In this document: piece by piece, positions 15,026 through 61,821 of the stretch
How positions within the stretch are numbered: the stretch's first letter is position 1
Layout of the letters: the number at the start of each line of letters is the position of its first letter
From: Acidimicrobiia bacterium
Lineage (GTDB): Bacteria; Actinomycetota; Acidimicrobiia; IMCC26256; JAMXLJ01
Assembly (NCBI GenBank): GCA_036558745.1
Contig: DATBEZ010000006.1
Location: 5,526 to 69,525 of the forward strand
Length of the DNA stretch: 64,000 nt
Reading direction: 5' to 3'
Notes under the pieces: model-generated
What the model saw: the letters and a program-made list of their open reading frames with translations, nothing else
Database searches by the model: none
What the model was told of the DNA's origin: nothing
Translations under genes and position numbers: made by a program

Positions 15026-15118
15026 GCGAGCGGAGCACGACGTCGACGTCGCCCGGCGACAGCACAGCGCGGAGCGAGCGCGCAGAGGTCGTCGCTTGAT
15101 TCCTGCCCGGGACCCGAG

Positions 15119-17612: not shown

Positions 17613-17624
17613 GCGCGAGGTGGG

Positions 17625-18746: not shown

Positions 18747-18755
18747 GCCTACTCC

Positions 18756-19931: not shown

Positions 19932-20006
19932 GTCTCTCCTCCTCGGCGCACCGGTGGGTTGGTCATGTTAGGGACGGGCCGCTCGAAACGGCCAGTCTCG
20001 AGGGAA

Positions 20007-26376: not shown

Positions 26377-26532
26377 GTTCACCTCCCGGCACTCGGTCCG
26401 ACAGAGCCCGTGCCGCACCAGCGGCCTCCCGAACCGGATACCCGAATCGGCGGAGCAGGAAACGACGGCGCCACGTGACCAGCCACGCCACGCGTTGACC
26501 GAAACGTGCGGCGGCGAGGCCACTCGCACGCG

Positions 26533-28071: not shown

Positions 28072-28235
28072 GGCGACGACCGCGCGCCAGCGCGCGCGTC
28101 GGATGTGTGTGGTCGTAGATCCGTCCAGGAGGTGACCCCCCGCCGCGAGGACGGTGTGATGCGCGGCAGTGTGTCAGACGATGGTGGTCGGTTCATGAAC
28201 CTCGCGCGCCCCGTGTGCAGCGCGACGCGCCACGC

Positions 28236-40980: not shown

Positions 40981-42162
40981 TCAGACCGGGAGCTCGTCGA
41001 AGGGGACGTCGCGGTCGACACGCACGTCGCCCGGGAGACCGAGCACGCGCTCGCCCACGATGTTGCGCTGGATCTCGTCGGTGCCGCCCCGGATCGACAT
41101 CGACGGCGCGGTGAGGAACAGCGTCGACCACTCCCCCGCCGACGACACCGCCTCGGGGCCGAGGATGCGCATCGCGGTGTCGGTGTAGCGCCGGAACGTC
41201 TCGGTGAAGCGCAGCTTCATCCCCGAGCCCTCCGCGCCGGGCCGGCCCGCCTGAGCGAGGTCGCGTGCGCGCCGCGCCGCGAGTCGCGCCACCTCGAGGT
41301 CCACGTAGGTGCGCGCCAGCGCGTCGCGGACCAACATGTCGTCGAGGCGACCGCGGCTGCGGGCGAGCTCGACGAGACGCTCGAACGTCAGCGTGGGACC
41401 ACCACCACCCAGCGCGCCGCGCTCGTGTGCGAGGCAGGTGAGCGCGACGGCCCACCCGGCACCCACCTCGTCGATCCGGTCCGCGTCGTCGACGACGGCG
41501 TCGTCGAGGAACACCTCGTTGAAGTGCGCGTCGCCGTTCATCTGCCGGAGTGGCCGCACGTCGACACCGGGCTGATCCATCCGGAGCGCGAACGCGGTGA
41601 TGCCCGCGTGCTTCGGCACGGTCGGGTCGGTCCGTGCGAGCAGCAGCCCCCAGGCCGAGTAGTGGGCCCGGCTCGACCACACCTTCTGACCGCTCACGCG
41701 CCACTCGTCGCCGTCGCGGACGGCTCGGCAGCGCAGGCCGGCGAGGTCGGAGCCCGCGCCGGGCTCGCTGAACAACTGGCACCAGATCTCCTCGCCCGTG
41801 CGGATCGCGGGCAGCCAGCGCCGGCGCTGCTCCGGTGCGGCGTGGGCAAGGACCGTCGGACCCACGAGCGCGAGGCCCACCATGAACGGGTAGAGGTCGG
41901 GCACGCGGAAGCCGGCCAGGACGCGGTTCACCACCGCCGCACCCTTGACGTCGAGCCCCAGCCCCCCGTGCTCGACCGGCCACGTCGGAACCGCCCAGCC
42001 GCCGTCGGCGAGCGCCCGCAGGTAACCGCGACCCGGCTCCAGGTCCTCGTTGCCTGCACCGAGAACGACGACCGGCTCGTCGGGATCGCGGGGGTCGAGG
42101 CGCGCCCGCAGCGCCTCCCGTACGTCGGCCTCCAGGGATGACGGAGGTTCAGGCGTGGGCAC
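40981..42162 (-). CDS. acyl-CoA dehydrogenase
   Basis: 393 aa with CQLFSEPGAGSDLAGLRCRAVRDGDEWRVSGQKVWSS and the C-terminal RGGTDEIQRNIVGERVLGLP. Confidence 0.9.
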   Translation of the reverse strand: MPTPEPPSSLEADVREALRARLDPRDPDEPVVVLGAGNEDLEPGRGYLRALADGGWAVPTWPVEHGGLGLDVKGAAVVNRVLAGFRVPDLYPFMVGLALVGPTVLAHAAPEQRRRWLPAIRTGEEIWCQLFSEPGAGSDLAGLRCRAVRDGDEWRVSGQKVWSSRAHYSAWGLLLARTDPTVPKHAGITAFALRMDQPGVDVRPLRQMNGDAHFNEVFLDDAVVDDADRIDEVGAGWAVALTCLAHERGALGGGGPTLTFERLVELARSRGRLDDMLVRDALARTYVDLEVARLAARRARDLAQAGRPGAEGSGMKLRFTETFRRYTDTAMRILGPEAVSSAGEWSTLFLTAPSMSIRGGTDEIQRNIVGERVLGLPGDVRVDRDVPFDELPV

Positions 42163-42931
42163 GGCGGTCGCGGACGACCTGTTCGAGCGCCTCCGCGACG
42201 ACGGGGGTCGCGGCGTCGGCCCAGATCGCGTGCCCGGCGCGGCTCGGGTGGAACCAGTCGGCCGAGAAGAGATGCGGATCGCGGCTGAAGCCCGAGTTCA
42301 TCGCGCCGACGGGCAGCTTCTCGACGTCGTCGAAGCGGCTCGCGACGCGCGCGTGCACGGCGTCGACGGCGCGGGACCGTGCGCGAGCGACGAGCGCCAG
42401 CGGGAACGGCACCCGCGGCACGTTGCCCAGGTCGCCGACGCCGGTGAGGATCACGAGCGGGACGATGGTGAGCAGCTGCTCGACGATCTCGGTGAGATCC
42501 CGCTCGACCTGCTTGAGCGGCGTCACGTGCATCACATCGTTCGCGCCGGTCGAGACGATCGCGAGGTCGGCGTCGACCTCGAGGGCGCGCGGCACCTGGT
42601 CGTGCAGCACCTCCGTGGTGCGCGCGCCACCCGTCGCGACGCTCACGAGCCGGACGCGCCACCGGTCGCGCAGCCGTTCCGCCATCTGATGGACCCAGAT
42701 GTCGTCGGGCGACTCGAGGCCCGACCCGGTCAGCGTGCTGTCGCCGAGGAGCAACACGGTGACCTCCGGTCGCGACGGGTCGCCCACGACGCCCGACGGA
42801 TCGTGTCCGGTCACCGTGGGGAGGCCGCGGTGCACGGCGTACATCGCCTCGCCCCAGAGCGTCGCCACACCAGCCGCCACGACGGCGGGGAGCGCGAGCA
42901 AGGGCGCGAGCGGCGGCCGGCGTCGGATCAT
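42149..42931 (-). CDS. SGNH/GDSL hydrolase with N-terminal TM/signal segment
   Basis: Internal ATG 42931 (ATGA overlap with the PPOX stop). VTVLLLGDSTLTG (block I), STGANDV and WFHPSRAGH (block V). Confidence 0.75.
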   Translation of the reverse strand: MIRRRPPLAPLLALPAVVAAGVATLWGEAMYAVHRGLPTVTGHDPSGVVGDPSRPEVTVLLLGDSTLTGSGLESPDDIWVHQMAERLRDRWRVRLVSVATGGARTTEVLHDQVPRALEVDADLAIVSTGANDVMHVTPLKQVERDLTEIVEQLLTIVPLVILTGVGDLGNVPRVPFPLALVARARSRAVDAVHARVASRFDDVEKLPVGAMNSGFSRDPHLFSADWFHPSRAGHAIWADAATPVVAEALEQVVRDRRAHA

Positions 42932-43419
42932 GCAGTACCGCCCTGCTGTCCGGTCGTCTGCATGCCGAGCTTGCGGTGGTCCCACGACACGGTCCGGTCG
43001 ACGTGCAGCTTCACGACGACACGCTTGTTCAGCATCACCTCGACGAAGGGTCGCATCTCTTCCGTGTATTTCCCGCCCTGGTACCGCTCGAACACGCTGA
43101 CCCCCAGCTCGAACATCCGCTCCGGGTCGTCGACGATCTCGCCGCGCCCGACGAGCTCCACACCCCGCAGCTCGTCGTAGGTCTCTCCGTCTTCAACCAG
43201 CACGGTCATCTGGGGATTCCGGCGCAGGTTGAGGACCTTCTGGCTCTTCGCCTTGGTCTCGATCGCGATCGCCCCTTCGAGGAAGCCGTACCACATCGCC
43301 ACGAGGTGGATGCTGCCGTCGTGGTTGACCGTCGCGATCGACATCGTGTGACGACCTTGGAGGAACTCGTCCACCTCCTCGTCGGTCATCTTGATCAGGT
43401 CACGCTGCTTGACACCCAT
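42928..43419 (-). CDS. PPOX-class (pyridoxamine 5'-phosphate oxidase-like) probable F420-dependent enzyme
   Basis: MTDEEVDEFLQGRHTMSIATVNHDGSIHLVAMWYGF...LRRNPQMTVLVEDG. Confidence 0.7.
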   Translation of the reverse strand: MGVKQRDLIKMTDEEVDEFLQGRHTMSIATVNHDGSIHLVAMWYGFLEGAIAIETKAKSQKVLNLRRNPQMTVLVEDGETYDELRGVELVGRGEIVDDPERMFELGVSVFERYQGGKYTEEMRPFVEVMLNKRVVVKLHVDRTVSWDHRKLGMQTTGQQGGTA

Positions 43420-43441
43420 GTCGCTCCCTCGCTGGTGATGG

Positions 43442-44191
43442 TCAGGCGGACACGGCCGCGTCGACGGGGATGATGGCGCCGCTCACGTAGCGCGCCTCGT
43501 CGGAGCCGAGGAACGCGATGACGGCCGCGCAGTCGTCGGGCCTGCCCATCGCGCGGTACGGCATGATGCGCGTCAGCAGCGCCATCGACGCGCCCTCGGG
43601 GAACGCGAAGCTCTCGGTGATCGCAGTGTCGATGCCGCCCGGCGCGAGCGCGTTCACGCGCAGACCGGCCTCGGCGTACTCGACCGCGAGCGCCCGGGTG
43701 AACAAGGCCACGCCGCCCTTCGACGCGGAGTACGCCGCGCTGTACGGCTGGCCCTTGATGCCGGCCGTGGATGCGATGTTGACGATGCTGCCGCCCGTCT
43801 CGAGGAGCATCGGGATGCAGGCCCGGCTCATGAGGAACGTGCCGCTCAGGTTGATCGAGATGATGCGGTCCCACTCGGCCAGCGACAGCTCGTGGGTGTG
43901 GGCGAACCGTCCGACGCCGGCGATGTTGCACAGGACGAAGGGACGGCCGAGCTCCGCGACGATCGCCTCGACCGCGTGCGTGACCGCGGCTTCGTCGCTC
44001 ACGTCGCAGCTGAGCGCGCACGTCTTCGCGCCGGCGGCCGACGCGTCCGCCGCGGTCACGTCGTTGGCGGCGGTGACCACGTCGAGGCACGCCACCGCGG
44101 CGCCTTCCTCGGCCAGGCGCAACGCGGTCGCCCGGCCGATCCCGGAACCGGCACCGGTGACGATGGCGACCCGTCCGTCGTACCGACCCAC
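43442..44191 (-). CDS. SDR family oxidoreductase
   Basis: GTG 44191 is preceded by GGACAGGAG. GRVAIVTGAGSGIGRATA, YSASKGGV. Confidence 0.85.
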   Translation of the reverse strand: MGRYDGRVAIVTGAGSGIGRATALRLAEEGAAVACLDVVTAANDVTAADASAAGAKTCALSCDVSDEAAVTHAVEAIVAELGRPFVLCNIAGVGRFAHTHELSLAEWDRIISINLSGTFLMSRACIPMLLETGGSIVNIASTAGIKGQPYSAAYSASKGGVALFTRALAVEYAEAGLRVNALAPGGIDTAITESFAFPEGASMALLTRIMPYRAMGRPDDCAAVIAFLGSDEARYVSGAIIPVDAAVSA

Positions 44192-44420
44192 AGGCTGCTC
44201 CTGTCCTTCAGGGAACGGCAACCCTACGACGGCGCTCTGTGGCCGGGCCAGACCGCGCGCGCGGTCCGTCGGGCAGAATGGGCGCCGTGCCGATCGTGCT
44301 CCGCAAGGCCCAACGAGGGGGCCCGTGACGACTTCAGCGGCGAAGACCTCCACGGTGCTGACCTGCGCGGTGCCGACCTCCGGGCCGCGCATCTCGTCGG
44401 TGCGGGACTGACGACCGCGG

Positions 44421-45041
44421 TCACGACTGCGTACGGAGCGCGTCGATCACGCGCACGTAGTCGTCGACCTCGACCGCGCCCTGCACGAGCCGGCGACCGT
44501 CGATCACGACCGCGGGGACGGCGTAGATCCCGAGCTCGATCGCTTCGTGGTACTCGGCGAACACGGCGGCCTGCGCGTCCTGACCGTGATCGGTCAACGC
44601 GGCGTCGAACCCGGCCGGGTCGAGACCGATGTCGGCGGCGATCTCGACGAGCACCCGCCGATCGGAGACCGTGCGGTTCTCGACGAAGTACGCCTGGAAC
44701 ACGGCCCGCTCGTAGCGAGCGGCCGCGTCGGTCCCGAGCTGGCGCGCCACCCGGGCCGCGACGGCAGGTCCGACGCTGGAGGTCGGCGGCGCCGCGTCGC
44801 CGCTCCACACGTGGAAGCCGCACGCGGGCTCCATCGCCGCCGGCCGCCGCCACGACTCCGTGTAGCGGCGGAACTGGTCGAGGGTGCGAGCCTCCGGTTC
44901 GGGACGCAGGAGGAACGCCTTCCACTCGAGCGTGATGCCGTCACCGAGGCGCTCCTGCAACCGGTCGAGGCGCACGGCCGCGACGTAGCACCACGGTCAG
45001 AGGAAGTCGGACCACACGGTGAGGGCGACGGCCTTGGCCAT
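44421..45041 (-). CDS. DsbA/FrnE-family thiol oxidoreductase with in-frame TGA at the first active-site Cys position (selenocysteine candidate, or a Cys-to-stop pseudogene)
   Basis: ATG 45041 gives MAKAVALTVWSDFL-TGA(44999..44997)-PWCYVAAVRLDRLQERLGDGITLEWKAFLLRPEPE... This is continuous in frame with ORF 44421..44975. The track splits it into 44997..45281 and 44421..44975. Confidence 0.6.
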
Positions 45042-45090
45042 TGGGCCAGCATGGCAGCTGACCGCAGCGCGAGACATCCGGGAGAGCGAC

Positions 45091-45492
45091 GTGGACGAGC
45101 AGCATGCCGACGAGCAGAACCCGCCGCAGGGGGCCATCGCCCGCACGCTCGACGCGGTGCCCCGCGTGCTCGCGAGCAAGACGCACATCGCGTGGTTGTT
45201 CGTCTTGTTCGTGTGGATCGTGCTCCTGGCCGCGGTCGCACCGGACCTCGTGAGCGCACGCACCGAGCTCATCCTCGGCAACTACACGAACGTGACGAGC
45301 GCCATCGGCGCCTGCATCGCCGCCGGAGGCACCGTCACCGCGGTGCACCACCTGCGCCGTCAGTCACGCATCTCGGAGCAGCGCCTCAAGCTCGAGGAGG
45401 AGCGCCATGCCATGGCGACGCAGACCCACCAGCTGCTGCGCGAGCTGCACGCGTCCCAACTGGGCGGGACGACCGGCGCTCAGGACGCGTGA
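45091..45492 (+). CDS. hypothetical membrane protein
   Basis: In-frame GTG 45091 follows GGGAGAG. TM segment HIAWLFVLFVWIVLLAAVAP. The C-terminus is coiled-coil-like (RISEQRLKLEEERHAMATQTHQLLREL). Confidence 0.45.
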   Translation: MDEQHADEQNPPQGAIARTLDAVPRVLASKTHIAWLFVLFVWIVLLAAVAPDLVSARTELILGNYTNVTSAIGACIAAGGTVTAVHHLRRQSRISEQRLKLEEERHAMATQTHQLLRELHASQLGGTTGAQDA

Positions 45493-45512
45493 GCGTCCCG
45501 CACAGCGAGGCG

Positions 45513-46310
45513 CTACAAGCCCGTCATCGGGTAGGGGAACTTCGCGCCGACACCGCCGTCGACGACGAGGGTCTGGCCGGTGACGTACGCGGCGAGATCC
45601 GACGCGAGGAACAGGATCGCGGAGGCGATGTCTGCGGGGAGCGCGACCCGGCGCAGCGGCGCATTCTCGGTGTTCCGTGACCGTCCCTCGTCGCCGAGAT
45701 ACGCGGACACGCGCGGCGTCCACACCACACCGGGCGCGACGGCGTTGACCCGGATGCCCAGCGGACCGAGCTCGACCGCCCCGGAGCGCACGAGGGCCAT
45801 GAGCCCGGCCTTCGCCGCGCCGTAGGCGGCGTGGCGCGGCGCCGACGTGATGCCCGACACCGACGCGACGAACACCATTGCGCCACCGTCGCCGCGCATG
45901 ACGCGGCCGCCGAGCTGCATCGCGAGGTACGCGTGCCGCAGGACGATGTCGAAGTGCCAGTTCCAGTCGTCGTCGCTCACGTCGAGCAGGTCCGCGTAGC
46001 GGGCCATGCCGATGATGTCGACGAGGCCGTCGACCCGGCCGAACGCCGCCTGCGCGCTCCCGAACATGCTCTCGGCGTCGTCACGCTTGGTCGCGTCGCC
46101 CGACCACGCAATTCCGTCGACCTCCTTGGCGACATCGTCGGCGAGGTCGGCGTCGAGGTCGACGCAGAACGTCCTCGCTCCGGCGGACGCGAGCGCGTGC
46201 GTGGCCTGGCGGCCGATGCCCTGCCCGGCGCCGATCACCACGAAGTTGCGGCCGTCGAGGCGCAGCTTGCCCGGATAGTCGGGCACCTCGGTGTCGTCGG
46301 AACGTGTCAT
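45513..46310 (-). CDS. SDR family oxidoreductase
   Basis: FVVIGAGQGIGRQ, YGAAKAGL, PGVVWTP. Confidence 0.85.
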   Translation of the reverse strand: MTRSDDTEVPDYPGKLRLDGRNFVVIGAGQGIGRQATHALASAGARTFCVDLDADLADDVAKEVDGIAWSGDATKRDDAESMFGSAQAAFGRVDGLVDIIGMARYADLLDVSDDDWNWHFDIVLRHAYLAMQLGGRVMRGDGGAMVFVASVSGITSAPRHAAYGAAKAGLMALVRSGAVELGPLGIRVNAVAPGVVWTPRVSAYLGDEGRSRNTENAPLRRVALPADIASAILFLASDLAAYVTGQTLVVDGGVGAKFPYPMTGL

Positions 46311-46325
46311 CGCTTCCTCCCGCGC

Positions 46326-47252
46326 CTACTTCACCGCGACGGGTTGCACGGGTGCGCCCACCGCGTTGGTGAACGGCAGGGGTGACGCGTCGAGGAAGCA
46401 GGTGTAACGACCGTCGTCGGCGCAGTCGGCCGCCAGGGCTTCGAAGTTCCAGTTCTGGCCCTGCGTCATCCCCATGTCGACCAGGTGCAGGAGGTGCACC
46501 GGAAGGAGCGCGTCGTCGCGCTCGCACGGGAACACCTCGAACGTGACGTTGTCGGTCGCGACCGCGGCGACGTCGTGGTCACGGAACCACTGCACGGTCT
46601 GCAGCGACGGACCCGGCGCGGGCGCGCCGTACCCCATCTTGTCGCCGGCGAGGAACAGCTGGATCTGACCGGTGCGGAGCAGGATCACGTCGCCGGGTCG
46701 GACCTCCATGTCGCCGAGCGCGGCCGCGGCGTCGAGATCGTCGGCAGTGATCGCGTAGCCGCCGTCGAGCCGCTCCACACCCTTGGCGCGGGGAACGTCG
46801 AGCAGCACACCGCGCGACACGAGCGTTGTGATGTTGTGGATCCCGAGCTGCAGCGCACCGAGCTCGGTGATGGTCGACGCCGGGACACCGTTGTAGAGGT
46901 TGCCCTCGTAACTGACGTGGCCGAGCCCGTCCCAGTGCGTGCACGCTTGGATGCCCATGTGCACGGTGTCGTCGCTCGTGCAGAAGTCCGACGGGTCGCC
47001 GGTCATCGACGCGTTGATGGCGAGCATCGTGCGCAGCGGATTGGTACGTCCCGGGATGATCCCCGTCTGGGGTCCGTTCTGGTCGAGCGGGATGCCGAGC
47101 CCGAACCGCTTGCCGGTCTGCACGTTCGCCGCCGCCTCGCGCACGACGTCGTCGGTGATCAGGTTGACCGTGCCGATCCGGTCGTCGCCGCCCCAGCGAC
47201 CCCAGTTGCGGACCTTCGCCGCCAGCTCCTTCACTTCGTCAGGCAGAGCCAC
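46326..47252 (-). CDS. cyclase-family protein (PF04199)
   Basis: NWGRWGGDDRIGTVNLIT...THWDGLGH...GDVILLRTGQ. Paralog of 23256..24167. Confidence 0.8.
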   Translation of the reverse strand: MALPDEVKELAAKVRNWGRWGGDDRIGTVNLITDDVVREAAANVQTGKRFGLGIPLDQNGPQTGIIPGRTNPLRTMLAINASMTGDPSDFCTSDDTVHMGIQACTHWDGLGHVSYEGNLYNGVPASTITELGALQLGIHNITTLVSRGVLLDVPRAKGVERLDGGYAITADDLDAAAALGDMEVRPGDVILLRTGQIQLFLAGDKMGYGAPAPGPSLQTVQWFRDHDVAAVATDNVTFEVFPCERDDALLPVHLLHLVDMGMTQGQNWNFEALAADCADDGRYTCFLDASPLPFTNAVGAPVQPVAVK

Positions 47253-47362
47253 GGTTCAGCCTCCCGCGGTCGAGCTGTCAGTCCGCCGTGCCGCTGCGGT
47301 CGATCGCGTCCCCCGGCGTGCGAGCTGTTGGCAGGTGAGCGGCGAGCTCGCGAGCGCGACCA

Positions 47363-48469
47363 TCAAATCGTGAGCACGCCGCGTGCGAGCTTGCCGTCGT
47401 GCAGGTCGTGCACCGCGCGCTCCCAGTCCTCGATCGGGTACTTCGCGGTGACGAGCTCGTCGAGCTTGAAGGTCCCCTTGCGGTACATGTCGATGATGAG
47501 GGCGACGTCGTGGTGGGGCCTGTGCGACCCGGCGCGACAGCCCATGACGCCCCGCTCGACGTGGGTCATGTGCGTGACCCGCGCGGTGAACTCGGCCGTC
47601 GGTGCGGGCACGCCGACGATCACGACGTTGCCGCCCCAGTCGAGCATGTCGAGGCCCTGACGGATCGTCGCCGGTGCGCCGACGCAGTCGAACACCCAGT
47701 CGGTGCCGCCGGCCTCGAACGGCCCGGTGACCGCTTCGTCGCTGAACGGCAGCAGCGTGCGCACCTCGGCGACGGTGTCGACTCCGGGACCGGCGAGGAC
47801 GAAGTCGGTCGCGCCGAACTCGCGCGCCCACTGCTCCTTCTCGGGGAGCGTGTCGACCGCGATGATCCGGCTCGCACCGGCGATCTTCGCGGCCTGGATC
47901 GAGTTCAGACCCACACCGCCGACCCCGAACACGACCGCGGTCTGTCCCCGTTGCAGGTCGGCGCGGTTCCACACCGCGCCGGCGCCCGTGAGCACGCCGC
48001 AGCCGACGAGCGCGGCCGACTCGAGCGGCACGTCGTCGGGGATCTTCACGCACTGCTTGCCCTCGACCACGCTGTACTCGGTGAAGAACGACGCGGCCGC
48101 GAAGTTCCACGCGGGCTCGCCGTCGAGGGTGAACGGCTGGGTTCGGTTGCCCATGCTCGAACGGCAGTACGCGGGCCGGCCGGTGATGCAGAACCGGCAC
48201 ACACCGCAGTAGGCCAGCGTGTGCAGCACGACGTGGTCGCCCGGCTTCACGTTCGTCACCGCGTCGCCGACCTCGGCGACGATGCCCGCGCCCTCGTGGC
48301 CGAGCACCGACGGCGCGGGCCACGGGATCGTCCCGTCGATGACGCTGAGGTCGCTGTGACACAGCCCGGCCGCCACGATCTGGACCTTGACCTCGGTCGG
48401 GCCGGGCGCGCGAACCTCGATGCCCTCGAGCAGCTCCGCCTTCTCCCCCGTGTAGACGAGGCCCTTCAT
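47363..48469 (-). CDS. zinc-dependent alcohol dehydrogenase (MDR, class III-like)
   Basis: [24 protein letters not shown], structural-zinc cluster [15 protein letters not shown] and GVGGVG. Confidence 0.9.
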
Positions 48470-48524
48470 CGCTTCCCCCTATGTGCCGCCGATCGCGCTG
48501 GCAAGCTCGCCGCTCCCGGCGTGC

Positions 48525-50000
48525 TCAGGCCGGCCAGATGATGCTCTGCAGCTCCGTGTACGCGTGCATGCCGAAGTCGCCGCCGTCGCGACCGATGCCG
48601 CTCATCTTGAACCCGCCGAACGGCGCCTCGTGATGGCGTTGGGCGGTGTTGACGCCGACGTGTCCGCAGCGAAGCTCCTTGGCGACCCGGAACGCCCTGG
48701 TGGTGTCGGACGAGTACACGTAGTCGTAGAGACCGAAGTCGCTGTCATTGGCGATCGCGATGCCTTCCTCCTCGGTGTCGAAGGGCACCGCGACGATCAC
48801 CGGTCCGAAGATCTCCTCGCGCACCGACGTCATCTCGTTGTGGCAGCCGGCGATGAGCGTCGGGCCGACGTAGTAGCCCTTGTCGACGCCGGAGGGGTTC
48901 GTCCCGTCGACGACGAGCTCGCCGCCCTCCTCCTTGCCGAGGTTGATGTAGTGCTCGACGCGCGAACGGTGCGCACCGGTGATGAGCGGTCCGACCACCG
49001 TGTCGGCCCGCATCGGGTCGCCGACCTTCAGCGACGGCGCCGCGGCGGCGAGCGCCTCGACCAGCTGGTCGTAGATACCGCGCTGCACGACCGCGCGCGT
49101 CGGCGCGGTGCAGATCTGACCGGAGTGGAAGCCCCACACGCTCACGAGCGCGGTGACGGCGGCCTTGATGTCGGCGTCGTCGAAGACGACGCACGCACCC
49201 TTTCCGCCGAGCTCCATGAGGAGACGCTTCATCGTCCTCGCGCCGGCCTCGTAGATCTTCACACCGACCGCGGTGCTGCCGGTGAACGAGATCATGTCGA
49301 TGTCGCGCGCGTCGACCATCGCGGCACCGACCTCCGGACGGGACCCCGTCACGACGTTGACGACACCCTTCGGGAAGCCGACCTCCTCGCACAGCGCGGC
49401 GAACTCGATGATCGTCAGGGGATCCTGCGGCGCGGGCTTCATCACGATGGTGTTGCCCGTCGCGAGCGCAGGCGCGACCTTCCCCGCCATGTTGACGAGC
49501 GGGAAGTTGTAGGACGTGATGCACCCGACGACGCCGACGGGCTGGCGGTACGCGGCCGCGTTCATGAGCGCGCCGGGCGCGAGCGGTGTCGCGGGCATGA
49601 CCGACGGTTGGAACGCGATGTCGATGTTGGTGACCGCACCCTTGGCGTAGCGCTCGAAGCGCGCCGCGGCCTGGGGCACCTGGAGCTGCGACCCGACGGA
49701 GAGGGTCGCGCCCGTCTCCGCGATCACGAGCGGGAGGAGGTCCTGCATGCGCTCGCGCAGCTTGTCGGCCAGGGCCTGCAACAGCCGGGCCCGCTCCTCC
49801 GGTGGCGTGTGCGACCAGGCAGGGAACGCGGCCTTGGCCGCGGCGGCGGCCGCGCGCACGTCGTCCACCGACGCCTCGGGTGCCGGTGCGACGAGGGCCT
49901 CCGTGGCCGGGTTCACGATGTCGTAGGTGCCGGCCGAGCCGTCGACCCATTCCCCTCCGATGAGCAGCCGGTACTGCTTGTCGGTGAGCGTGGCGGACAT
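48525..50000 (-). CDS. NAD(P)-dependent aldehyde dehydrogenase
   Basis: Internal ATG 50000 follows GGAGG. MSATLTDKQYRLLIGGEWVD, FTGSTAVG, ELGGKGA and catalytic-Cys region HSGQICTAPTR. Confidence 0.9.
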   Translation of the reverse strand: MSATLTDKQYRLLIGGEWVDGSAGTYDIVNPATEALVAPAPEASVDDVRAAAAAAKAAFPAWSHTPPEERARLLQALADKLRERMQDLLPLVIAETGATLSVGSQLQVPQAAARFERYAKGAVTNIDIAFQPSVMPATPLAPGALMNAAAYRQPVGVVGCITSYNFPLVNMAGKVAPALATGNTIVMKPAPQDPLTIIEFAALCEEVGFPKGVVNVVTGSRPEVGAAMVDARDIDMISFTGSTAVGVKIYEAGARTMKRLLMELGGKGACVVFDDADIKAAVTALVSVWGFHSGQICTAPTRAVVQRGIYDQLVEALAAAAPSLKVGDPMRADTVVGPLITGAHRSRVEHYINLGKEEGGELVVDGTNPSGVDKGYYVGPTLIAGCHNEMTSVREEIFGPVIVAVPFDTEEEGIAIANDSDFGLYDYVYSSDTTRAFRVAKELRCGHVGVNTAQRHHEAPFGGFKMSGIGRDGGDFGMHAYTELQSIIWPA

Positions 50001-50109
50001 CGGCGTGCCTCCAGAGGCGGAATCTGATGGAGCGTCAGCGCACTGTAACGCGTTGCACTCTCGGCGGACCCGGCGGCATCGCGCCCCCGCACGGCGGTCG
50101 CCGCGACCG

Positions 50110-50445
50110 TCAGCGGGCGCGGCGTGTGCGGGACGCGGCGAGCGCGGCCAGGCCCGCCGCGACGAGCACGACGCCCAGGTCCAGGACGTGCGCGGGCGAT
50201 CCACCCGTGAGCGGCAGCGTGTCGGACGCGCCGCGCTCGGCGGGCGCGGCGAGGCTCGCGCCCTGCACATCGACGCCGCCGGTCCCCGACCCGCCGACCG
50301 CGCCGGAAGGTGACGTCGCCGTCACGGGCGGCCCCGGCGGCGGCGCGCCGGGTGTCGTCGTGTCGCCCAGCACGCCCGTCGGCGACCCGGCGACGAAGCC
50401 GATGGGCGCGGTGAACAGGTCGTGACCATCCCATGCCGCGTACAC
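50110..50445 (-). CDS. orphan C-terminal LPXTG sorting-signal ORF (probable remnant of a surface protein)
   Basis: It ends ...DTLPLTGGSPAHVLDLGVVLVAAGLAALAASRTRRAR, i.e. LPLTG plus a hydrophobic helix plus a basic tail. No signal peptide at the N-terminus. Third-position GC is coding-like. Confidence 0.35.
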   Translation of the reverse strand: MYAAWDGHDLFTAPIGFVAGSPTGVLGDTTTPGAPPPGPPVTATSPSGAVGGSGTGGVDVQGASLAAPAERGASDTLPLTGGSPAHVLDLGVVLVAAGLAALAASRTRRAR

Positions 50446-50450
50446 CGAAC

Positions 50451-52004
50451 CTATGAGCCGTTCGGCCCATCCGTTCCGACCAGGCGTCGACGCACGTCGT
50501 CACGCAGGTCGCCCTTCGCGATCTTTCCGCCCGACGAGCGCGGCAGCTCGTCCACGACGACCAGGTACTCCGGCCACGACTCCTTCCCCACGCCGCGCGC
50601 GGCCAGGTGCTCGCGCAGCTCGTCGAGGGTCGGCGCTGCAACGCCGGCGTGCACCTCGACGTAGACGCAGACCCGTTCGCCGAACACGTCGTCGGGTGCG
50701 GCGACCGCGGCCGCGATCGCGATCGACGGGTAGGACGCGACCTCGTCCTCGACGACCGCGGCGCTGATGTTCTTACCGCCGCGGATGATGAAGTCGGACG
50801 CGCGTCCCGCGACCATGAGGTAGCCGTCGTCGTCGATCGTGCACACGTCGCCGGTGAGCATCCACCCGTCAGCGGTGGAGAGCGCTGCGTTCGCCTCGTC
50901 GTCGTCCAAATAGCCGTAGCAGGTCGCCGGTCCACGACAGCCGGCGACGCCCGGACCTCCGGACGCCGTCAGGTCAGAACCGTCGTCGCCGAAGAGACGG
51001 ACGTGCATCTCCGGGATGATGCGCCCCGCGGTGCGGAGGCGGCGGTCCCGCGAATCGTCCACGGTCGTCGCGCTGAGCGCGCCCGTCTCGTTCGACCCGT
51101 AGAACTGCAGCACCGCGCAGCCGGTGCGGTTTTCGAACTCGGCTGCTCGCTCGTAAGGAACCATCTCGCCGCCCGTGAACATCACCCGCAGCGACGACGT
51201 GTCGGTCGTCGCGAAGGCGGGCGTGTTGAGCAGCATGACGAACTGCGTCGAGACGCACGCGATCACCGACACCCGCTCGCGCTCGATCAGGTCCAGGCAT
51301 CCTTCCGGCGTGAACCGGCTCATGAGCACGCACGGACTGCCCAGCAGCGTGGGCGTGAAGTGCGCGGTCCAGAGCCCGAAGCCGAACGGGGCCGGGATCA
51401 CGCTCATGAACACGTCGTCGGGACCGAGGCGACCGTTCGTAACCGCGAGGCGGTGGAAGAAGCACCAGCGTGCCTGGGCGTGCACGACGACCTTGGGCAG
51501 GCCGGTCGTGCCCGACGTCGAGTTCACGAGGAAGACGTCGGTCGCGCCGACCGGCTCGCGATCCGGCGCCTTACCCGGCGGCGCCGCGTCGAGGTCGACG
51601 ACGGGGATACCGAGGCGCGCGGCCACGTCGCCACGCTGCGGCGTGGTCACCAACGCGACCGCGTGGGCCTTCCTGAGGACGTGCTCGGCTTCGCGGTCGC
51701 CGGCACGCGGACCGATGCCCACCACGACGAGTCCCGCCTTCTCGAGCGCGACGAACACCACGTGCACGAGCGGACCGTCGGGCAGGAGCACGCCCACGCG
51801 TGACCCGGGCGCGAACCGCGCGAACAGGCCGGCCAACGCGTCGGACCGGGCGTTGTAGTCGGCCCACGTCAGGCGCCCGTCTCCCTCGACGAACGCGGTT
51901 GCGTCGGGCCGCTCGCGCGCGTGGCGGGCGACGGTCGCCGCGATCGTCGTGTCGTCCCAGTACCCCGCGGCGCGGAACTCCGCGGCCAGCGCGTCGAAGG
52001 GCAC
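50451..52004 (-). CDS. acyl-CoA synthetase / AMP-dependent ligase
   Basis: NSTSGTTGLPKVVVH, YGSNETG, GDVCTIDDDGYLMVAGR and IRGGKNISAAVVE...SSGGKIAK. Confidence 0.85.
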   Translation of the reverse strand: MPFDALAAEFRAAGYWDDTTIAATVARHARERPDATAFVEGDGRLTWADYNARSDALAGLFARFAPGSRVGVLLPDGPLVHVVFVALEKAGLVVVGIGPRAGDREAEHVLRKAHAVALVTTPQRGDVAARLGIPVVDLDAAPPGKAPDREPVGATDVFLVNSTSGTTGLPKVVVHAQARWCFFHRLAVTNGRLGPDDVFMSVIPAPFGFGLWTAHFTPTLLGSPCVLMSRFTPEGCLDLIERERVSVIACVSTQFVMLLNTPAFATTDTSSLRVMFTGGEMVPYERAAEFENRTGCAVLQFYGSNETGALSATTVDDSRDRRLRTAGRIIPEMHVRLFGDDGSDLTASGGPGVAGCRGPATCYGYLDDDEANAALSTADGWMLTGDVCTIDDDGYLMVAGRASDFIIRGGKNISAAVVEDEVASYPSIAIAAAVAAPDDVFGERVCVYVEVHAGVAAPTLDELREHLAARGVGKESWPEYLVVVDELPRSSGGKIAKGDLRDDVRRRLVGTDGPNGS

Positions 52005-52007
52005 CGG

Positions 52008-53261
52008 CTAGGGCATCCGGAGCTGGTCGGGCACCGGATGACGGAACAGGCGCGCCGCGTTCTCCCAGCAGATGGCGCGCACCTCGTCGGCGGGGAAGCC
52101 GCGCATGTGCGCGTGCAGCTGGGCCTGGGTGTCGGGCCAGCTCGAGTCCGCGTGGGGATAGTCCGACTCCACCAAGATGTTCTCGACGCCGATGCGGTGA
52201 CGGGTCTGCAGGCCCGACTCGTCGTCGATCGCACAGAACCAGAAGTTGCGCTGCAGCACCTCGGCCGGCGAGAGGTCGACGTCGCGCCACGTCGGCAGGT
52301 AGCCGAGCTGATAGCGGTAGCAGTGGTCGAGCCGGTCGAGGAGACCCGCGACCCAGCCCACCCCGCCCTCCGACAAGCAGATGCGCAGGTCGGGGAAGCG
52401 CACCGCGACCTTCGAGTAGAGCCAGTCGACCGCGGCGTACATCGCGTACGCGAAGAACAGCACCGCGACCGTGTCGGGCGGCGCGTCGTCGGCCGTCGCG
52501 GGCGACGAGCCCGACGACCCGACGTGCAGGCACACGACGGTTCCCGTCTCCGCGCACGCGGCGAGGAACGGGTCCCAGTAGCCGGTGTGCAGCGAGGGCA
52601 GGTCGAGCTTGTCCGGCGCCTCCGAGAACGTGACCGCGGTGAACCCGCGCTCCGCGTTGCGGCGTATCTCGTCGGCCGCGACGACCGGGTCGCGCAGGTA
52701 CGGGATCTGGTTCGCGATGAACCGGTCGGGATGCGCGCCCGCCCACGCCTCGAGGTGCCAGTCGTTGTACGCGCGCATGGCCGCGAGCGCGAGCTCGTCG
52801 TCACCCGGCCACATCGTCAGACGTTGCCCGACGAACCCGGGAAGGAACGACGGGAAGCACAACGACGCGTACACGCCGTTGACGTCCATGTCGTGCACGC
52901 GCGCGTCGACGTCCCAGGCACCGCGGCGCATCTCGTCGAAGCGTGTGGGCTCGAAGCCGTACTCGCTCGACGGCCGGCCCGCGACCGCGTTGAAGCCCAC
53001 GTTGGGCAGCACCTCGCCCTGCCAGACCCACGCCTCGCCACCGTCGTCGGTCTCGATGACGCGCGGTGCGTCGTCGGCGAAACGTCGCGGAAAGCGTCCC
53101 TCGAACGCGTCCGGCGGCTCGACCACGTGGTCGTCCACGCTGATGATCGTGGCGAACCGCTCACGGGGCTCGGGCTCGGGCAGGAACGTGACCTGGCCAC
53201 GCCGGGCCTTCGAGCCGCCGAACGCCTCGGAGCGCTGCAGGTCGTCGATCGACATGCTCAT
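52008..53261 (-). CDS. amidohydrolase_2 family (ACMSD/LigW-type metal-dependent hydrolase/decarboxylase)
   Basis: IISVDDHVVEPPDAFEGRFP...VNGVYASLCFPSF...CLHVGSS...ESDYPHADSSWP. Paralog of 56119..57333. Confidence 0.85.
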   Translation of the reverse strand: MSMSIDDLQRSEAFGGSKARRGQVTFLPEPEPRERFATIISVDDHVVEPPDAFEGRFPRRFADDAPRVIETDDGGEAWVWQGEVLPNVGFNAVAGRPSSEYGFEPTRFDEMRRGAWDVDARVHDMDVNGVYASLCFPSFLPGFVGQRLTMWPGDDELALAAMRAYNDWHLEAWAGAHPDRFIANQIPYLRDPVVAADEIRRNAERGFTAVTFSEAPDKLDLPSLHTGYWDPFLAACAETGTVVCLHVGSSGSSPATADDAPPDTVAVLFFAYAMYAAVDWLYSKVAVRFPDLRICLSEGGVGWVAGLLDRLDHCYRYQLGYLPTWRDVDLSPAEVLQRNFWFCAIDDESGLQTRHRIGVENILVESDYPHADSSWPDTQAQLHAHMRGFPADEVRAICWENAARLFRHPVPDQLRMP

Positions 53262-53268
53262 GACAGCC

Positions 53269-54081
53269 TCATTGCAACACCTCGGGCTCGTCCCGCAGCA
53301 GCTGGCGGACCGCGCCCTCCCAGTGGACGCGGGGTGCGTTCCGCTTCAACAACGCCTTCATCTCGGCTCGTGCCGGCGCCGGGATCTCGACCGGCTCCCG
53401 GCCCGCGCGCAGCACGTCGTACGTCATACGGCACATGCGCTCGAACGTGACCGCCTTGTACGTCGCCTCCTGGATCGTGGGGGCCGTGACGATCACACCG
53501 TGACTCACGAGCAGCACACCGCTCGCGCTGCCGACGCGCTCGGCCAGACGCGCGCCGGAGCTCGCGTCGTCGATCGAGCCGTCGTACTCGTCGACCACAC
53601 CGAGCTCACCGTCGAAGATGCACGCGTTCTGGTGCACCAGCCGCGGCGCCTCGCCCATCGCCGCGAGCAACGTCGCGTAGTAGGGGTGGTTGTGGATCAC
53701 GACGCGCGCGTCCGGACGGACGCGGTGCAGCTCGGTGTGGAGGAAGACCGCGGGCGTGACGTCCCATTGGCCCGCCACGACGTGACCATCGGGGTCGACG
53801 GCGACGATGTCGGACGCCTGCACCTCCTCCCACCACTTCCCCCAGGGGTTGGCCCACAGGTTCGGGGTGACGTCGTCGGCCCAGGTGATGTGGCCGGCGA
53901 TGTGCTCGCCGAACCCGGTCCCCGCCAGGATGCGCAGCGCGCACGCGAGCTCCTGCTGCAGCGTGAGCTCGACGCCGATCCCCGGCCCCGGCAGCGGCCG
54001 CTCGGTGTCCTCTGGTCGCTCCCGCTCCCGCTCTGAGGGCTTCGCCCGGCGGAGCTCCGCTCCCGCTCCCGTCGTCGTCAT
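53269..54081 (-). CDS. class II aldolase/adducin-family protein
   Basis: Internal ATG 54081. GHITWADDV...DIVAVDPDGHVV...VVIHNHPYYATLLA...LVSHGVIVTAPTIQEA. Confidence 0.8.
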   Translation of the reverse strand: MTTTGAGAELRRAKPSERERERPEDTERPLPGPGIGVELTLQQELACALRILAGTGFGEHIAGHITWADDVTPNLWANPWGKWWEEVQASDIVAVDPDGHVVAGQWDVTPAVFLHTELHRVRPDARVVIHNHPYYATLLAAMGEAPRLVHQNACIFDGELGVVDEYDGSIDDASSGARLAERVGSASGVLLVSHGVIVTAPTIQEATYKAVTFERMCRMTYDVLRAGREPVEIPAPARAEMKALLKRNAPRVHWEGAVRQLLRDEPEVLQ

Positions 54082-54097
54082 CGCCCCACCCCACGCT

Positions 54098-54145
54098 GCG
54101 TTGGGACATGAACGGCACTCATACGCTGCATTGTTGTCCCAACGC
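54098..54145. repeat. conserved-stem hairpin GCGTTGGGACA-N26-TGTCCCAACGC
   Basis: Read directly. It lies between the ECH stop (54167) and the aldolase start (54081). Confidence 0.7.
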
Positions 54146-54166
54146 GCCGGTGGCGGTACCTGGTGT

Positions 54167-54991
54167 TCACCGCAGCTGCCACTCGACCCGCTTGCCGGAC
54201 GCGAACGCCTCCTGGCCCGCCTTGAGCCCTTCGGTCGTCGTGCCCATGGCGACGAACGCGTACGCCATCTCGAGCGCGGCCTTGTGCCCGGCATCGCGCG
54301 CGGTCCAGAGCGAGCGCATCGTCGCCTGCACCGCGAGGGGCGGGTACGACGCGATGGTCTCCGCGACCCAACGCGCATGCTCGGCCAACCGCTCCGCGGG
54401 CACCACCTCGGTGACGAGACCGATCTCCTTCGCACGTGCCGCCGACAACCGCTCGGCGTTGCCCATGAGCGAGAGGCGCATGATGTCGCCGAAGGGCATC
54501 TTGTGCAGCATGTGGACGGGCTCGAAGCCGGCGGGCATGCCGTAGCTCACGTGCGGGTCGAAGAAGGTCGCGTGCTCCGCCGCGATCAGGAACTCGCACT
54601 CGCCGAGCATGTAGAACGCGCCGCCGCACGCCATGCCGTTCACGGCCGCGATCACCGGCTTCCACAGATCGCACGTCTTCGGACCGATCTTCTGACCCGG
54701 GTCGTCCAGCATGAACGGGCTCGAGTAGGCCGCCGACTGACCGCCGGCCTCCAGGTCGTCGCGCCAGTCGGTATCGATGTCGGAGCGGTCGATGCCGGTG
54801 CAGAACGCCTTCTCGCCGGCCGCGGTGAGGACGACCGCGTTGACGTCCTGGTTCGCCCGCAACGAGCGCCATACGTCGTAGAGCTCGTCGGTCATCTTCG
54901 TGTTGAACGCGTTGTACACCTGTGGTCGGTTCAGCGTGACCCAGGCGACGCCGTTCTCCTCGCGGTAGTCGAGCGTCTCGTAGTCGGGCAT
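54167..54991 (-). CDS. enoyl-CoA hydratase/isomerase (crotonase) family
   Basis: Internal ATG 54991. GVAWVTLNRPQVYNAFN...VVLTAAGEKAFCTGID...KPVIAAVNGMACGGAF. Confidence 0.85.
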   Translation of the reverse strand: MPDYETLDYREENGVAWVTLNRPQVYNAFNTKMTDELYDVWRSLRANQDVNAVVLTAAGEKAFCTGIDRSDIDTDWRDDLEAGGQSAAYSSPFMLDDPGQKIGPKTCDLWKPVIAAVNGMACGGAFYMLGECEFLIAAEHATFFDPHVSYGMPAGFEPVHMLHKMPFGDIMRLSLMGNAERLSAARAKEIGLVTEVVPAERLAEHARWVAETIASYPPLAVQATMRSLWTARDAGHKAALEMAYAFVAMGTTTEGLKAGQEAFASGKRVEWQLR

Positions 54992-55023
54992 ACGGGTCGG
55001 CCTCCTCGTCGCGGTCGCCGGCG

Positions 55024-55038
55024 CTGACGCGCCGTCAG
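55024..55038. promoter_or_regulatory. perfect palindrome CTGACGcgcCGTCAG
   Basis: In the 88-bp divergent region between ECH (start 54991) and esterase (start 55080). Confidence 0.5.
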
Positions 55039-55079
55039 GTGCGGCGATACTGTGCGGCGCACCGCCGAGGGAGGTCAAC

Positions 55080-56015
55080 ATGCCGCTCGATCCGGTCACC
55101 CGCGGGATCATCGACGCGATGTCGCAGGTGTTCCCGAAGGTGCACACCATGGAGGCGGCCGACGCGCGGGCGATGGCCAAGGCGATGCCCGCCACGGCGG
55201 CCGAGCCCGAGCCGGTAGCGGTGGTCTACGACCGGGATCTCCCGGGGCCGGCGGGCGACATCCCGGTGCGGGTGTACCGGCCGCAGCCGATCGGTGGCGA
55301 CCCGCTCCCCGTCGTCGTGTACTTCCACGGCGGCGGGTGGGTGCTGTGCGATCTCGACACCCACGACACCACGTGCCGCGCGATGGCGAACGGCGTCGAC
55401 GCGGTGGTCGTCTCCGTCGACTACCGGCTCGCGCCCGAGCACAAGTTCCCCGCCGCGGCCGAGGACGCGTACGCGGCGACGCAGTGGGTGTTCGACCACG
55501 CCGACGAGCTGGGTGCCGACCCCGAGCGGCTCGCGGTCGCGGGCGACAGCGCGGGCGGGAACCTCGCGGCGGTCGTCCCGTTGATGGCCCGCGACCGCGG
55601 CGGACCGCCGATCCGCTTCCAGCTGTTGATCTATCCCGTCACCGACTACTCGTTCGACACGCCGTCGTACCGCGACAACGCCGAGGGCTACTTCCTGCTC
55701 CGGATCCACATGGAGTGGTACTGGCAGCAGTACATCGGCTCCGACGAGGAGGGCGCGAACCCGTACGCGTCACCGTTGCGGGTGAAGGACGCGTCGGGCC
55801 TCCCCCCGGGCCTGGTGATCACCGCGGAGCTCGACCCGCTCCGCGACGAGGGCGAGGCGTACGGGAAGAAGCTTGCCGACGCGGGCGTGCCGTTCACGGT
55901 GCGCCGCTACGACGGCATGTTCCACGGCTTCTTCTCGATGGGCGAGTTCCTCGACGGCGCGAAGCAGGCAACCGCCGACTCCCACGCGGCCCTCAGGACC
56001 GCGCTGAGCCCTTAG
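55080..56015 (+). CDS. alpha/beta hydrolase fold-3 esterase/lipase (HSL family)
   Basis: Oxyanion HGGGW, nucleophile GDSAGGNL and DPLRDEG. Confidence 0.85.
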   Translation: MPLDPVTRGIIDAMSQVFPKVHTMEAADARAMAKAMPATAAEPEPVAVVYDRDLPGPAGDIPVRVYRPQPIGGDPLPVVVYFHGGGWVLCDLDTHDTTCRAMANGVDAVVVSVDYRLAPEHKFPAAAEDAYAATQWVFDHADELGADPERLAVAGDSAGGNLAAVVPLMARDRGGPPIRFQLLIYPVTDYSFDTPSYRDNAEGYFLLRIHMEWYWQQYIGSDEEGANPYASPLRVKDASGLPPGLVITAELDPLRDEGEAYGKKLADAGVPFTVRRYDGMFHGFFSMGEFLDGAKQATADSHAALRTALSP

Positions 56016-56118
56016 GCCAGAACGCGTTTGCCGGCGCAAGTCGCGGTTGGCAGGGCGCCGCCCTGACGCCCGCGGTGCTTGCCCCGCTCCGACTCCGTCG
56101 GCGGCGCAGAGGATACAG

Positions 56119-57333
56119 CTACGCGTACTCGGGGAGTTCCAGGCCGAGCATCTTGATCGCGTTGCCGCGCATGATCTTGAGGATCACGTCGTCGTCGAGA
56201 CCCTTCGTCTGGGCTTCGGCGATCTCGCGGGTGCGGGGCCACGTCGAGTCGGAGTGCGGGTAGTCGCTCTCGTAGGTGACGTTCTCGACGCCGATCTCCT
56301 CGATGGAGCGCAGGCCGTGCGCGTCGTCGAAGAAGCAGCCGTACACGTGGTCGCGGAAGAGCTGGCTCGGCGGCTCGAGGACCTTGTCGGCCACGCCACC
56401 CCACGCGCGGTTCTCCTGCCACACCACGTCGGCCCGCTCGAGGACGTAGGGGATCCAGCCGATCTGGCCCTCGGAGTACGCGATCTTGAGGTCGGGGAAC
56501 CGGTTGAACGCGCCGCACATCAGCCAGTCGACGAGCGAGTAGCACGCGTTCGCGAACGTGAGCGTGGACCCCACGGCCGGTGGCGCGTCGGCCGACGTCG
56601 AGGGCATCTTCGACGACGAGCCGATGTGCATGCAGACGACGGTGTTCGTCTCCGCGCACGCTCGGAAGAGCGGGTCCCAGTAGTTGCTCGTGTCGTGGAT
56701 CGACGGCAGGCCCAGGAACGGCGGGATCTCGCTGAAGCACGTCGCCCGCACGCCGCGCGCCGCGTTGCGACGCACCTCCGCCGCCGCGAGCTCCGCGTCC
56801 CAGAGCGGGATGATGATGAGCGGGATGAGACGGCCACCCGACTCACCGCACCACTCGTCCACCATCCAGTCGTTGTAGGCCTCGACACAGAGCTTCGCGA
56901 GGTCCTTGTCGCTCGCCTCGAGGAACGTCTGACCGCAGAAGCGCGGGAACGTCGGGAAGCAGAGCGACGCCTCGATCCAGTTCGTGTCCATGTCCTCGAG
57001 GCGCGGCGCGACCTGGTACGAGCCGGGACGCATCCACTCGTACGTCGTGCCTTCGACCGTGATGTCGTCGCGGTCGTGGCCGACGGCCGCGTCGAGACGC
57101 ATGAGCGGCCGGCGGAGGTCCTCGTAGAACCACCAGTCGACGGGAGCGCCCTTGTCGCCGGGCTCGCCCGGCACGACCGTGAGCTTGCCGCCGATGAAGG
57201 TCATCTCCTTCACCGGTGCGCGCAGCACGCGCGGACCGACGTCGCGGTACTTCGCCGGGAGCCGGCTCTGCCACACCTCGGGCGGCTCCACCACGTGGTC
57301 GTCGACGGAGATGATCTTCGGGAACTCACGCAT
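56119..57333 (-). CDS. amidohydrolase_2 family protein
   Basis: IISVDDHVVEPPEVWQSRLP...NWIEASLCFPTF...CMHIGSS...ESDYPHSDSTWP. Confidence 0.85.
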   Translation of the reverse strand: MREFPKIISVDDHVVEPPEVWQSRLPAKYRDVGPRVLRAPVKEMTFIGGKLTVVPGEPGDKGAPVDWWFYEDLRRPLMRLDAAVGHDRDDITVEGTTYEWMRPGSYQVAPRLEDMDTNWIEASLCFPTFPRFCGQTFLEASDKDLAKLCVEAYNDWMVDEWCGESGGRLIPLIIIPLWDAELAAAEVRRNAARGVRATCFSEIPPFLGLPSIHDTSNYWDPLFRACAETNTVVCMHIGSSSKMPSTSADAPPAVGSTLTFANACYSLVDWLMCGAFNRFPDLKIAYSEGQIGWIPYVLERADVVWQENRAWGGVADKVLEPPSQLFRDHVYGCFFDDAHGLRSIEEIGVENVTYESDYPHSDSTWPRTREIAEAQTKGLDDDVILKIMRGNAIKMLGLELPEYA

Positions 57334-57354
57334 GGGGGCAGCCTACCCCCGGAT

Positions 57355-61466: not shown

Positions 61467-61479
61467 GTAGGTATCCGGG

Positions 61480-61806
61480 TCAGGTGGGGACGTCCCATTC
61501 GACGTGAGCTTGGATCGCGCCGCCGTCCTCGTCCAGCCAACCCTTGCCGCGGGCGTACTCGACCATCCCGTCGAACCGGTCCGACCATCCCCCACCGACG
61601 TGGCCCGCGGCGAGCGAGCGCAGCGTGTCGACGCGAACGAACGCATCCTCGCCGGCAAGACGACCGACGTCGCGGCCCGCGAGCACCTCGGCGAGGCGAG
61701 CCGGATCCTGTGTGCCGACCACGAGGAGATGGAAGCGCGTGCAGTCGTCCGCCTCCTCGAGCGTGATCGCGGGTGGCGCCGCCGCGAGATGGATCTGCAC
61801 GTACAC
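61480..61806 (-). CDS. hypothetical protein (108 aa)
   Basis: Strong third-position GC bias, and tightly packed between an SDR and the fused ACAD. No domain recognised. Confidence 0.5.
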   Translation of the reverse strand: MYVQIHLAAAPPAITLEEADDCTRFHLLVVGTQDPARLAEVLAGRDVGRLAGEDAFVRVDTLRSLAAGHVGGGWSDRFDGMVEYARGKGWLDEDGGAIQAHVEWDVPT

Positions 61807-61821
61807 GTGTCGCCCCTTTAC

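Follow-up and report, generated by a model that had tools for sequence, protein, structure and literature searches.

A predicted selenocysteine-containing DsbA/FrnE-like oxidoreductase, with a conserved SECIS-type hairpin, in a catabolic gene cluster of Acidimicrobiia-like actinobacteria

DsbA-like selenoproteins of the UxxC family (COG2761) were described in 2005 from the Sargasso Sea metagenome, in nine sequences with predicted SECIS elements (PMC1088965), and DsbA-like selenoproteins were reported from complete genomes in 2006 (PMC1794560) and from 41 organisms by Peng et al. in 2016 (PMC5029168); a 2026 review carries the entry “DsbA-like protein form 1, PF01323, UxxC” (PMC13188914). The same review gives the consensus for bacterial SECIS (bSECIS) elements, in the legend to its Fig. 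2, as a loop of 3-9 nt, a stem of 4-16 bp and a folding energy of -7.5 kcal/mol or below, the first two loop positions carrying a G and then G or U, and the UGA-to-loop spacing being 16-37 nt (PMC13188914). The minimal SECIS of E. coli fdhF begins 11 nt past the UGA and its loop presents G23-U24 (PMC8659212). The selenocysteine (Sec) trait is known to occur within the class Acidimicrobiia (bioRxiv 10.64898/2026.04.03.716425).

Within the 64-kb stretch of DNA analysed here (referred to as the window), a frame on the minus strand opens at ATG 45041, reads MAKAVALTVWSDFL-TGA(44999..44997)-PWCYVAAVRLDRL... (also read as PWCYVAAVRLDRLQERLG...) and ends at a stop at 44423..44421. A mechanical ORF list splits this gene into two pieces, 44997..45281 and 44421..44975; an earlier, sequence-only reading had described the frame from ATG 45041, its TGA and the two ORF pieces in this way, and the description matches the sequence. 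Read through the TGA, the coding sequence of the predicted DsbA/FrnE-like selenoprotein occupies 44421..45041 on the minus strand and has 206 codons including the Sec codon, with TGA 44423..44421 as its stop, and its start ATG is found at the same position in a 90%-identical relative (L003). The in-frame TGA (44997..44999, minus strand) is the predicted Sec codon, residue 15, at the first Cys of a CPWC motif, giving a putative U-P-W-C redox motif (TGA CCG TGG TGC; 44988..44999, minus strand) in which T1-C5 and T7-G11 are invariant over 16 distinct sequences. With the TGA read as Cys, the Pfam DSBA domain (PF01323) matched residues 7-197 (E 1.4e-26, 93.9 bits against a cut-off of 25.6), and the domain runs through the TGA. 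Only 14 residues precede the active site, forming strand beta-1 (VALTVWSD), and there is no hydrophobic leader.

The best PDB matches were FrnE of D. radiodurans and SCO1869, with FrnE (PDB 5cnw) the best solved-structure match (E 1.2e-13), and WSDIACPWCYIG of FrnE 5cnw aligns with WSDFL[TGA]PWCYVA so that the TGA stands opposite the first Cys of CPWC. The gene was also compared with the DNA of 17 TGA-type relatives of 40-90% amino-acid identity, made up of two Acidimicrobiia MAG contigs (L001, which is JAMXLJ010000157, and L002, which is JALSTE010000015), six metagenome contigs and nine contigs encoding truncated homologues; the alignments comprised 16 distinct sequences. The TGA was present at the identical codon, inside SD[FY]L-TGA-PWC, in all 17 of these relatives, and the recurrence of an in-frame TGA in 17 of 17 loci is far beyond chance. 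Database proteins near 50% identity were full-length and carried SDFLCPWCY. The placing of the TGA at the nucleophilic Cys of CPWC, as first proposed, is supported by the FrnE alignment, by Cys homologues with SDFLCPWCY against SDFL-TGA-PWCY, and by two relatives (L018 and L019) that have TGC here; alignment with homologues sets Cys opposite the TGA, as that proposal had anticipated, and purifying selection acts on either side of it.

For the 16 distinct sequences, the 66 nt from the UGA were aligned and each candidate structure was scored; the first 12 nt past the UGA were left out as ribosome-occupied and nt 13-42 were folded. A hairpin at nt +16..+36, counted from the U of the UGA (44964..44984, minus strand), in which 16-19 pair with 33-36 and 21-23 with 29-31 on either side of a C20.U32 mismatch, was the minimum free energy (MFE) structure of nt 13-42 in the window at -10.2 kcal/mol, and a near-identical hairpin was the MFE structure in all 16 distinct sequences (-8.8 to -12.6 kcal/mol). 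Evaluated alone, the hairpin had energies of -7.6 to -10.8 kcal/mol in 15 of the 16; in the remaining one, L016, it forms in a shifted register, and only there is the energy limit reached. The RNAalifold consensus was also this hairpin, and 84% of its cells were paired, compared to 38-52% when the partners were slid. Its apical loop of 5 nt, C24-G25-U26-G27-C28 in the window (44972..44976, minus strand) and S24-G25-U26-S27-C28 across the sequences, has invariant G25 and U26. Covariation between its positions 24 and 27 is perfect, eight sequences having C/G and eight G/C with nothing in between, and on a neighbour-joining tree this takes three switches or more. Compared with the bSECIS model, 15 of the 16 distinct sequences agreed on all four counts, with a 5-nt loop, G then U in the first two loop positions, 20 nt from the UGA to the loop and an energy of -7.5 kcal/mol or below.

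Synonymous-codon entropy, taken at conserved four- and six-fold degenerate codons, was 0.56 bits for codons +1..+11 against 1.22 bits elsewhere (one-sided Mann-Whitney p 0.003), and the six-codon stretch from +5 was the third lowest of 172, the two lower ones holding non-degenerate W, U, W codons. When this 70% GC sequence was shuffled with its dinucleotides preserved, the native folding energy was not better than that of the shuffles (z -0.26 for the hairpin and -0.84 for the 70-nt sequence), and as energy is non-significant in so GC-rich a context we relied on comparative evidence. Compensatory changes in the stem of the +16..+36 hairpin were not seen among the 16 distinct sequences, and it is conservation alone that supports the stem. 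We regard +16..+36 as a predicted, conserved SECIS-type element behind the TGA.

Two other stem-loops, H1 (+8..+31) and H2 (+27..+51), had been put forward as SECIS candidates by the sequence-only reading; both are present at those offsets, but neither is conserved, whereas +16..+36 is. The lower stem of H1 is invariant and its upper pairs (12-27, 16-24) are broken in 8-10 of the 16 orthologues, and its loop, which has no G at the first two positions, begins just 13 nt past the UGA and is too close to it. H2 has a 12-nt loop, and the 60% of its cells that were paired were no better than shuffled or slid controls. When RNAalifold was given the full 66 nt it returned a hairpin at +4..+22 with 92% of cells paired, which was not above shuffles (127/500) and which is not a SECIS because it would lie inside the ribosomal mRNA channel while the UGA occupies the A site, though it may form in free mRNA. 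The long-range MFE structure of the 70-nt window sequence (z -0.84) was likewise rejected, as it was not conserved. No Rfam families were matched in the 64-kb window, and Rfam covers bacterial SECIS elements poorly (Actinomarina preprint, bioRxiv 10.64898/2026.04.03.716425).

Cys-type DNA for comparison comprised two sequences, L018 and L019, which carry TGC at the TGA codon and both nest inside the TGA clade, beside L014; a tblastn search against plasmids for Cys-type control DNA gave only relatives of 35% identity or less, which were too distant. L014 (TGA) and L019 (TGC) have an EamA neighbour in common and are a direct pair of predicted Sec-type and Cys-type orthologues. The 33 nt past the codon are identical in L019, hairpin included, and the loop G25 is lost in L018, which, for just two Cys-type sequences, looks like a recent Sec-to-Cys conversion that leaves a decaying (fossil) SECIS. 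As L019 has the identical hairpin, the structure is not exclusive to TGA forms, and it could be a fossil SECIS in L019 or could in part be a by-product of the VAAVRL peptide and GC-rich codon usage. A third cysteine, Cys74 (codon 44820..44822, minus strand, within MEPaCgF), is shared without exception by the close Sec clade (the window, L001, L003-L006 and L009-L013) and is replaced by Ala or Gly in all more distant Sec- and Cys-type relatives, and may act as an extra redox partner of Sec15.

We consider it highly probable that UGA 44999..44997 encodes Sec, and the same confidence attaches to the joint reading in which the gene product is a cytoplasmic thiol-disulfide oxidoreductase of the DsbA/FrnE type, 206 residues long, that lacks a signal peptide and has a U-P-W-C active site. 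A selenoprotein candidate with Sec for the nucleophilic Cys of CxxC was what the sequence-only reading had proposed, and the conserved TGA, the purifying selection, the Cys-type orthologues and the SECIS-type hairpin all favour it. Sec insertion, SelB binding and the enzyme substrate are inferred: with the ribosome at the UGA, the first ~12 downstream nt would sit in the mRNA channel and the next 21 nt (+16..+36) would fold as the hairpin, presenting G25-U26 in the 5-nt loop, to which SelB.GTP.Sec-tRNASec would bind and deliver Sec in competition with release factor 2. In the mature enzyme Sec15 would be the nucleophile acting on substrate disulfides and Cys18 would resolve the mixed selenenylsulfide.

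The UGA might instead be recoded as a residue other than Sec, by near-cognate read-through with Trp, Cys or Arg or by insertion of Cys via a Sec-like system, yielding a full-length, selenium-free protein. The conserved UGA and its conserved flanks show that the codon is translated and not which residue is inserted, and there was no Sec machinery among the window ORFs and tRNAs scanned: ARAGORN found no tRNA, including tRNA-Sec, either in the 64-kb window or among the 17 TGA-type loci, and neither SelA, SelB nor SelD turned up when ~58 ORFs of the window, together with ten from L001 and L006, were scanned against Pfam. Against this, the UGA falls precisely on the catalytic Cys of CxxC, with TGC in its place in orthologues, and such Sec/Cys alternation is the classical signature that defines selenoprotein families (PMC13188914); a hairpin fitting the SelB-type SECIS model lies at the right distance, and the family has already been catalogued as a UxxC selenoprotein (PMC1088965). 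Recoding to another residue seems improbable to us, and decoding of the UGA as Sec is the reading that we prefer.

When the window was scanned for redox motifs around upstream TGAs, this DsbA-like gene was the only one obtained. Same-frame ORF pairs joined by a TGA were considered as further selenoproteins, and on inspection their members proved to be distinct genes. The pairs were TetR and a ChsH2-like OB protein, a CoA-transferase and an acyl-CoA ligase, and a PQQ propeller and holin-X. The last of these pairs consists of a Holin-X protein (PF07332, E 7e-36; 25912..26532, minus strand) directly downstream of a PQQ beta-propeller (26533..28173, minus strand); they are in the same frame with a single TGA between them, yet a read-through product was rejected and they are separate genes.

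If translation really ended at the UGA, the working protein would have 184 aa and start at GTG 44975, and the 14-codon upstream frame would be non-functional or a leader peptide. This is what annotation suggests, as ORF finders and all public gene calls yield the truncated product: the GTG (44973..44975, minus strand), 7 codons past the TGA, is the start that they take, opening the 184-aa ORF 44421..44975, and in a protein search the 11 closest database proteins (63-99% identity) were all N-terminally truncated at 172-184 aa and started just past the CxxC. However, a product of this kind is without strand beta-1 and the entire CxxC motif of the thioredoxin fold, and the start codons picked by the gene callers vary from orthologue to orthologue. 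Both PWCYVAA, between the TGA and the GTG, and TVWSDFL, on the 5' side of the TGA, are conserved as protein, their residues being kept while codons change synonymously, and dN/dS against L003 was 0.13 over the entire gene, with 42 synonymous and 19 non-synonymous differences, and 0.14 over the portion lying 5' of the GTG that the gene callers use. A conserved peptide with synonymous variation and low dN/dS indicates that the frame is translated through the TGA, and we find a true stop very unlikely. Nor is a reassigned genetic code the explanation, since among the ordinary stop codons of the window TGA is the most frequent. The GTG start is an annotation artefact by which strand beta-1 and the active site are lost, and the truncation of public Sec-type entries is a systematic artefact across the clade. 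Public calls of the Sec-type members (P0001-P0011, P0040, P0045, P0047 and P0059) are all N-terminally truncated, with differing downstream starts, and are without the active site.

A pseudogene arising by TGC/TGT-to-TGA mutation, or a sequencing error, which the sequence-only reading had kept as the alternative and which is conceivable in so far as TGA and TGC are one base apart, is refuted by the same TGA in 17 independently assembled relatives from different samples, by a frame with no frameshifts or additional stops and a dN/dS of 0.13, and by an identical 184-aa product in other samples (P0001), and we give it next to no credence.

The gene for the predicted selenoprotein, DsbA(U), is embedded in a conserved catabolic cluster. 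Upstream of it are a short-chain dehydrogenase (SDR; 45513..46310, minus strand; Pfam adh_short_C2, E 1e-58), also found in L001 and L012, and a co-oriented cyclase (46326..47252). Downstream, and again co-oriented on the minus strand within 42928..44392, are another SDR (43442..about 44200) and a PNPOx-like flavoprotein (42928..43419), and past the PNPOx the run continues with a GDSL lipase and then an acyl-CoA dehydrogenase. This gene order is repeated in L010 and L012, and that of the downstream SDR and PNPOx genes in L020 as well; more distant Sec forms have different neighbours. Synteny with the Acidimicrobiia MAG contig L001 extends over at least 20 kb (about 40981..57342 of the window against 1..20603 of the contig), in the order Amidohydro_2, acyl-CoA ligase, aldehyde dehydrogenase, Zn-ADH, cyclase, SDR, DsbA(U), SDR, PNPOx, GDSL lipase, ACAD, thiolase and Amidohydro_3.

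The ~470-bp gap between the upstream SDR and the DsbA gene is filled by a 157-codon ORF on the plus strand (45019..45492), which overlaps the DsbA start by 23 nt, has coding-type GC1/2/3 values of 0.70/0.48/0.90 and one hydrophobic segment, and gave no match in Pfam or NCBIfam. The upstream SDR ends 5 codons before the DsbA gene in L001, and 88-102 nt lie between the end of the upstream gene and the called (truncated) DsbA start in L009-L012; given this tight spacing, the 45019..45492 ORF looks like a lineage-specific insertion. L003 seems to have it too.

For the close clade (the window and its relatives of 63-90% identity) we would entertain, as a doubtful reading, that the Sec-DsbA is a dedicated part of the catabolic cluster and not a general disulfide isomerase, working through a Sec15/Cys18/Cys74 triad. 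If this were true, the Sec-DsbA would be a selenium-dependent metabolic isomerase or reductase, much as HCCA isomerase is a metabolic enzyme of the DsbA fold. A smaller and equally doubtful point is that positions 24 and 27 of the SECIS loop may pair with each other across it and extrude G-U.

The window as a whole is dominated by lipid-/steroid-like catabolic genes, with at least 10 acyl-CoA dehydrogenases, at least seven SDRs and three luciferase-like monooxygenases, together with family III CoA-transferases, thiolases and a ChsH2-like OB-fold protein beside a TetR regulator (10491..11597). Two unusually long frames on the minus strand appear to be tandem fusions, one of 900 codons (1327..4029) with two CoA_transf_3 stretches and the other of 836 codons (59307..61817) with two acyl-CoA dehydrogenase units. 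A further minus-strand ORF at about 13171..13776, which begins ...GGIDILVICTGNICRSPM and overlaps a plus-strand CoA-transferase frame call, carries in GGIDILVICTGNICRSPM what is presumably the motif of a low-molecular-weight phosphatase or an ArsC-type enzyme.

Soil and environmental Acidimicrobiia-like actinobacteria thus very probably use Sec in a cytoplasmic DsbA/FrnE oxidoreductase. Standard gene callers mis-annotate the whole clade, the 11 closest database entries all being without the active site, and the proper annotation of this gene would be 44421..45041 with a transl_except for Sec. The known picture of selenoprotein families is unchanged, the UxxC DsbA-like family having been established since 2005; what this locus would add is an instance of a well-conserved SECIS in a high-GC lineage, together with a clean pair of Sec and Cys orthologues and a selenoprotein linked to a lipid/acyl-CoA catabolic cluster.

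Compared with known systems, the predicted protein resembles FrnE of D. radiodurans in its WSD-x-x-C-P-W-C-Y signature and in being cytoplasmic and signal-less, and differs from it in that FrnE has Cys, not Sec, and a chain ~50 residues longer at the C-terminus. The FrnE chain is of 260 residues and the alignment stops near its residue 207-220, while the protein encoded in the window stops at residue 206, Cys74 being its last Cys. The C-terminal tail of FrnE carries a second redox motif, CX4C, and as this Cys-containing tail is absent here the protein is not a FrnE sensu stricto. Nor is it a periplasmic DsbA of the E. coli type, because it has no signal peptide; matches to the E. coli and Vibrio DsbA proteins were restricted to the C-terminal half, with E about 1e-7. 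Membership of the Rcas_1661 family of thioredoxin-like (seleno)lipoproteins (NF041057) was also rejected, with 45.5 bits against an NCBIfam cut-off of 190 and a match in the C-terminal part only.

Like the SECIS of E. coli fdhF, the predicted element is a coding-region stem-loop, starting 12 nt past the UGA, with a small loop that holds G25-U26, but it has no bulged U on the 5' arm, it has a mid-stem C.U mismatch or G.U pair, and in its 5-nt loop positions 24 and 27 covary. The loop variant GGUC(C), present in half of the orthologues, we take to be the same as the GGUC loop of E. coli.

The closest likeness is to the DsbA-like UxxC family, in the PF01323 domain, in predicted Sec for the first Cys of CxxC, in widespread Cys homologues and in a SECIS-type hairpin right behind the UGA, this likeness resting on published descriptions (published examples AACY01178397 and NIP15863.1). 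The points of difference are the high-GC, uncultured Acidimicrobiia-like hosts, Cys74 in the close clade and the acyl-CoA catabolic cluster. With the domain, the Sec/Cys pair, the conserved UGA and a consensus-type SECIS all found at the sequence level, the gene would be a further member of this established DsbA-like UxxC family.
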